NCBI RefSeq assembly: GCF_041248615.1
Contig: NZ_CP158426.1
Length of the DNA: 64,000 bases
DNA from: Escherichia coli
GTDB lineage: Bacteria > Pseudomonadota > Gammaproteobacteria > Enterobacterales > Enterobacteriaceae
Strand: one strand, 5' to 3'
The notes beneath the pieces are model-generated. The model was not told the origin of the DNA. It was given only the letters and a program-made list of their open reading frames with translations, and did no database searches. Position 1 is the stretch's first letter; every line of letters begins with the position of its first letter. The position numbers were made by a program, and so were the translations under genes. Below, piece after piece: positions 59,862-59,877 of the stretch.

Positions 59862-59877
59862 ACGCAAACGTTTTCTT
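59862..59877. promoter_or_regulatory. PurR box upstream of the cvpA-purF operon
   Basis: ACGCAAACGTTTTCTT, a strong match to the 16-bp PurR operator palindrome, ~55 bp upstream of cvpA. Confidence 0.8.

Follow-up and report, generated by a model that had tools for sequence, protein, structure and literature searches.

In Escherichia coli, the purF operator is the reference operator for PurR; it served to define the repressor and is the DNA of the PurR-DNA crystal structures. Members of the LacI/GalR family, to which such operators belong, insert their hinge helices into the minor groove and bend the DNA. The lacO, galO, Cra and CytR sites are likewise pseudo-palindromes with a central CG step, each bound by a repressor dimer, but their half-site sequences are unlike that of PurR. 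Moreover, PurR requires a corepressor (hypoxanthine or guanine) for binding, whereas LacI is released by its inducer. The PurBox of Bacillus subtilis PurR carries the same name and has the same role, the repression of pur genes by purines. However, the B. subtilis protein has an unrelated fold and DNA motif, responds to PRPP as effector, and is no homologue of the E. coli system. Within the E. coli regulon, the PUR boxes of purT, purHD, purL, purMN, purC and purEK are also 16-bp imperfect palindromes, ACGNAAACGTTTGCNT, with a central CG, and usually lie over the promoter. PurR sites generally overlap the core promoter; those of purB and purR are located within the coding region and act as roadblocks, and the carAB site is found far upstream (PMC3159470, PMC6245113).

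The cvpA-purF-ubiX transcription unit, of which ubiX is the third gene, is a published PurR target in K-12. Cho et al. 2011 listed the motif AAGAAAACGTTTGCGT for this unit at K-12 positions 2,428,842-2,428,857 (Table 1, PMC3159470). In the same study, PurR ChIP-chip gave a log2 enrichment of 1.77 in the presence of adenine and no peak in its absence, and the cvpA-purF promoter was grouped with the earlier-characterized PurR targets, with reference to Makaroff & Zalkin 1985 and Rolfes & Zalkin 1988 (PMC3159470). Gel shifts with purified PurR have taken a cvpA-purF fragment spanning -171 to +56 as the target (PMC5829826), and crystal structures of PurR with the purF operator are cited in PMC6245113. 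The transcription start of cvpA in K-12 was reported at 2,428,821 on the minus strand, with 240 reads and a 5' untranslated region of 36 nt (Kim et al. 2012, PMC3415461, supplementary file 2); the upstream sequence printed for this start ends ...TGTTAGAATGCGCCCCG / ...CTACGCAAACGTTTTCTTTTTCTGTTAGAATGCGCCCCG.

The DNA analysed here (the window) is a stretch of 64 kb from another E. coli strain, and it contains the 16-mer ACGCAAACGTTTTCTT as an exact match on the plus strand. This is the exact reverse complement of the motif published as AAGAAAACGTTTGCGT. The box is thus identical to the K-12 purF operator in all 16 bp, lies in the same intergenic region and at an equal distance to cvpA, so that no substantive difference from the K-12 operator was seen. 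Within the E. coli pur regulon, it represents the archetypal purF operator, which is already known. When compared with the other PUR boxes, it has a weaker right half-site, GTTTTCTT in place of GTTTGCGT.

The window is part of an E. coli chromosome. Several complete E. coli genomes match a 401-bp stretch around the box at 100% identity, and in one of them the RefSeq gene order is dedA, accD, folC, dedD, cvpA, purF, ubiX, argT, all on one strand. The box is located in the dedD-cvpA intergenic region (258 bp), 72 nt 5' of the ATG of cvpA at 59934. The initial annotation had placed it upstream of cvpA-purF, and in this respect open reading frames, RefSeq annotation and Pfam domains agree. The features of the locus are collected in Table 1. 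The gene for the repressor itself, purR, is absent from the window. By the coordinates given in Table 1 of PMC3159470, K-12 purR lies about 0.7 Mb from cvpA-purF.

Table 1. Features of the cvpA-purF-ubiX promoter region and operon; positions are those of the window
Feature	Position	Strand	Details
Intrinsic-terminator-like hairpin with T-run	59804..59833	+	From terminator scan; 3' of dedD, about 30 nt 5' of the PurR box
PurR operator (PUR box) ACGCAAACGTTTTCTT	59862..59877	+	-36 to -21, centre at -28.5
Putative weak -35 hexamer	59862..59867	+	ACGCAA with 17-bp spacer; entirely within the PurR box
Extended -10	59882..59890	+	-16 to -8; TG at 59882-59883 (-16/-15), T, TAGAAT at 59885-59890 (-13 to -8)
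GC-rich discriminator GCGCCCC	59891..59897	+	-7 to -1; separates the -10 from +1
Transcription start of cvpA-purF-ubiX	G59898	+	Mapped from PMC3415461
5' untranslated leader, 36 nt	59898..59933	+	Shine-Dalgarno AGGA at 59925-59928
cvpA	59934..60422	+	162 aa, colicin V production protein family; ORF, RefSeq annotation, Pfam PF02674 (E 5.9e-38)
purF	60459..61976	+	505 aa, amidophosphoribosyltransferase; ORF, RefSeq annotation, Pfam glutamine amidotransferase and phosphoribosyltransferase domains
ubiX	62071..62640	+	189 aa, flavin prenyltransferase; ORF, RefSeq annotation, Pfam

That E. coli carries purR is well established. Between dedD and the operator, the intergenic region also holds REP-type palindromic repeats (59649-59794). 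Rfam returned three sub-threshold matches to naRNA4, a REP-derived family, in this segment (28-38 bits against a gathering score of 59.5), and no match at the cvpA promoter or leader; BLAST queries that include the segment hit many extra places per genome (median 11). The terminator-like hairpin that follows dedD has an equivalent in Morganellaceae, where it is kept with compensating sequence changes. In addition, an in vitro transcript running in the opposite direction has been described from the intergenic region 5' of cvpA (probe IG2428784_2429041-f, corresponding to about 59680-59935 of the window; PMC3141248).

The published K-12 start was placed on the window by sequence identity. With the start at G59898, the PurR box spans -36 to -21, so that it covers the -35 region and reaches into the spacer. 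The -35 element matches TTGACA at only two to three of six positions, be it in the hexamer of Table 1 or in the alternative hexamer TACGCA, which begins at 59861 and leaves an 18-bp spacer. A consensus promoter scan, whose rule asks for at least four of six matches in the -35, missed the cvpA promoter because this match is too poor. The only promoter that the scan did report, at 59532-59560, lies inside dedD and was disregarded. The poor -35 fits a dependence of the promoter on its extended -10. The initial annotation had also regarded the box as placed to repress the cvpA-purF transcript, which is borne out by its position relative to the mapped start, by the identical motif bound in ChIP-chip, and by the use of the cvpA-purF fragment as a PurR target in gel shifts. 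The same start-site dataset (PMC3415461) lists minor starts within cvpA (about 60070-60075, 382-386 nt 5' of purF), one of them with 3 reads. These suggest weak internal initiation that would escape control by the PurR box.

When compared with the perfect palindrome ACGCAAACGTTTGCGT, the box matches at 14 of 16 positions; the two mismatches, T59874 and T59876 in place of G, both fall in the right half. At its centre is the CpG step C59869-G59870 (box positions 8-9), which is present without exception in the 27 reference sites used for scoring. With up to three mismatches to ACGCAAACGTTTGCGT allowed, the box is the sole match in the 64 kb. Such loose pattern counts discriminate poorly, and a weight matrix was therefore derived from Table 1 of PMC3159470, with its 27 other motifs as input and the cvpA-purF entry excluded. 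In this leave-one-out setting, the box scored 21.67 bits out of a maximum of 25.13 and ranked sixth among the 28 published sites, each scored in the same manner. A place in the upper third of the published sites, far from a poor score, bears out the earlier description of a near-consensus PurR box.

After the box, the best-scoring unrelated position of the window reached 13.7 bits, 8 bits less. This match, ACGGCACCGTTTGCTC at 39730-39745 on the minus strand, lies within a 156-aa open reading frame of the yfc fimbrial gene cluster and was rejected as an operator; in this setting, outside any promoter context, it is probably a chance resemblance. A further position, 49484-49499 (13.2 bits), was likewise not taken as an operator; it falls within a long open reading frame and had been part of the matrix training set. 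Its sequence, ACCAAAGCGATGGCAT, is the weak fabB-mnmC motif of the PurR ChIP-chip table and scores 9.0 bits when left out of the matrix. The surrounding frame of 406 aa has the size and position of fabB, so this motif is not intergenic.

The conservation of the operator was followed at several depths. Among 5425 complete E. coli genomes, 5400 carry the 42-bp core from -41 to +1 with an identity of 99% or more, as a single chromosomal copy. An alignment of the 150-bp promoter region between K-12 (MC4100) and the window shows two base differences (59846 and 59925); the box and the -10 are the same in both. Extending the comparison to K-12, O157:H7, O127:H6 and another strain revealed, besides these two positions, only one C in the C-run of the discriminator, with the box and the -10 untouched.

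For the comparison across species, one genome per species was sampled with a degenerate pattern for the first cvpA codons (MVWIDYAI...). This pattern excludes the operator, and the sample is therefore unbiased with respect to it. A box of at least 12 bits was present in 57 of 117 scoreable cvpA upstream regions, always at a fixed place, and in none of the 115 coding controls, which were cvpA segments of equal length. In Enterobacterales, each of the 48 loci carries the box, which scores at least 18.6 bits and starts 69-74 nt 5' of the ATG; these loci include Escherichia, Citrobacter, Enterobacter, Klebsiella, Kluyvera, Pantoea, Cedecea, Proteus, Providencia, Morganella and Arsenophonus. The identical 16-mer is found in Pantoea and nearly all Enterobacteriaceae, and ACGCAAACGTTTTCGT in most Morganellaceae. 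When 25 Enterobacterales genera were aligned, mean column identity was 0.98 in the PurR box and 0.99 in the extended -10. The continuous stretch that begins with the box and ends with the -10 likewise reached 0.99, whereas the flanks and leader stayed at 0.70-0.78.

Outside Enterobacterales, the box and the promoter part ways. Nine Aeromonas loci (L015, L035, L037, L040, L046, L068, L090, L110 and L117) have a PurR-like box at -52 from the cvpA ATG, with the sequence GCGCAATCGTTTTTGT, or CCGCAATCGTTTTTGT in L090. All cvpA upstream sequences were anchored on the -10 to compare the conservation of the box with that of the promoter. In this comparison, the Aeromonas box sits 7 bp nearer to the -10 than the Enterobacterales box and overlaps the TG of the extended -10, so that the operator occupies another register on the same promoter. 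The element TGnTAGAAT and a GC-rich discriminator are kept in Shewanella, Colwellia, Thalassotalea, Rheinheimera, Psychrosphaera, Idiomarina, Zobellella and Ferrimonas. The segment from -36 to -21, however, is not conserved in Shewanella, Colwellia, Rheinheimera and other clades that keep the -10; the matrix was derived from E. coli sites, and a diverged PurR motif in Alteromonadales could escape it. Since the box has shifted in Aeromonas and the segment is lost where the -10 is kept, the box appears to be selected as a box and not merely as a -35 with its spacer.

This bears on the question of whether a strong housekeeping promoter, through its -35 and spacer, might account for the conserved block, with only an accidental resemblance to a PurR site. 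The box does coincide with the -35 position and spacer, the invariant block continues unbroken into the -10, and part of its conservation within Enterobacterales could stem from promoter function. Nevertheless, a -35 with so few matches to TTGACA stands against a PurR matrix score of 21.7 out of 25.1 bits, and neither the 7-bp shift in Aeromonas nor the loss of the segment beneath an unchanged extended -10 and discriminator is in line with a mere promoter element. Together with the published occupancy by PurR in vivo and the gel-shift use of the cvpA-purF fragment, this makes such an origin of the conservation extremely unlikely. Another member of the LacI/GalR family that recognizes a similar palindrome with a central CG might share the site or be its main user. 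The operators of this family have the same architecture, and a published regulator table gives RbsR beside PurR for purHD. Against this, the fit to a PurR-specific matrix is very good, the ChIP enrichment of PurR depends on adenine, and the literature search found no report of another regulator at the cvpA promoter, so this alternative is considered very improbable.

A short degenerate motif may also be matched by chance and have no function. With up to three mismatches to the consensus palindrome, 41 of 100 shuffled sequences contained at least one match, which illustrates how permissive such a pattern is. By contrast, when the whole 64-kb window was shuffled 300 times (first-order Markov), the matrix score of the box was attained on either strand in only 3 shuffles, and chance becomes negligible because the match sits in the 258-bp intergenic region directly 5' of purF. 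The near-complete identity among E. coli genomes, the position kept across Enterobacterales and the published binding data already refute a functionless coincidence, the probability of which is vanishingly small. No evidence against the reading as a PurR operator was found.

The segment 59862-59877 is thus almost certainly the purF operator, that is, the PurR binding site at the cvpA-purF-ubiX promoter, in the geometry expected for a block of RNA polymerase. Its sequence, score, position and conservation were established for the window; PurR occupancy in vivo and the choice of this promoter fragment as a gel-shift target come from the literature. When hypoxanthine or guanine is plentiful, a PurR dimer with bound corepressor would bind the 16-bp imperfect palindrome at -36 to -21. 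The cvpA promoter is an extended -10 sigma-70 promoter (TG-n-TAGAAT) whose weak -35 lies, along with some of its spacer, within the operator; the bound repressor would keep RNA polymerase away from it. The expected outcome is a lowered transcription of purF, which encodes the first committed enzyme of de novo purine synthesis, along with that of cvpA and ubiX. From the promoter geometry, we infer that steric exclusion of RNA polymerase is the mode of repression.

The core promoter below the operator deserves attention of its own. The elements at 59882-59897 are conserved at the equivalent place in loci L006-L125 and reach much further than the PurR box. GCGCCCC, with CCCG at -3 to +1, is a discriminator of the GC-rich type, and its equivalents in most other gammaproteobacterial loci read GCGCGCC, CGCGCCG or GCGCCGC. 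GC-rich discriminators have been linked to negative control by ppGpp and to a preference for the sigma-70 holoenzyme, and the cvpA, purF and ubiX transcripts are listed as preferring sigma-70 in vitro (PMC3141248). As promoter and discriminator are kept across Enterobacterales, Aeromonadales and Alteromonadales, stringent control is suggested; a direct report of ppGpp/DksA control of the cvpA promoter was not found in the literature search.

An inverted repeat formed by GCGCCC (59891-59896) and GGGCGT (59911-59916) straddles +1. Complementarity of 4-8 bp, starting 1-3 nt past the -10, occurs in every Enterobacterales lineage with differing sequences, as in Proteus, Providencia, Morganella and Arsenophonus; no sampled locus from outside the order shows it. 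Such complementarity arose in shuffled sequence with frequencies of 0.005-0.5 per lineage; Fisher's method over five lineage representatives, which are not fully independent, gives about p = 0.002. A hairpin at the 5' end of the mRNA was considered and dropped: the mapped start leaves the 5' arm upstream of +1 and hence untranscribed, so the primary transcript cannot form it. RNAalifold on a MAFFT alignment returned no consensus structure. A repeat that changes its sequence but keeps its pairing might point to a structure within a read-through transcript, or to another signal so far unrecognised. A second, undescribed layer of control, composed of an ancient direct ppGpp/DksA control of purF and a structured or unrecognised signal at the inverted repeat, may therefore be entertained as a tentative and rather doubtful proposal.

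The operator itself adds no new knowledge, and its value is that of a positive control: the site, its coordinates and its meaning were correctly recognised from the raw sequence alone. A small addition comes from the comparison across species, according to which the PurR box overlies a core promoter of cvpA-purF-ubiX that is much older than the box itself and has a far wider conservation.
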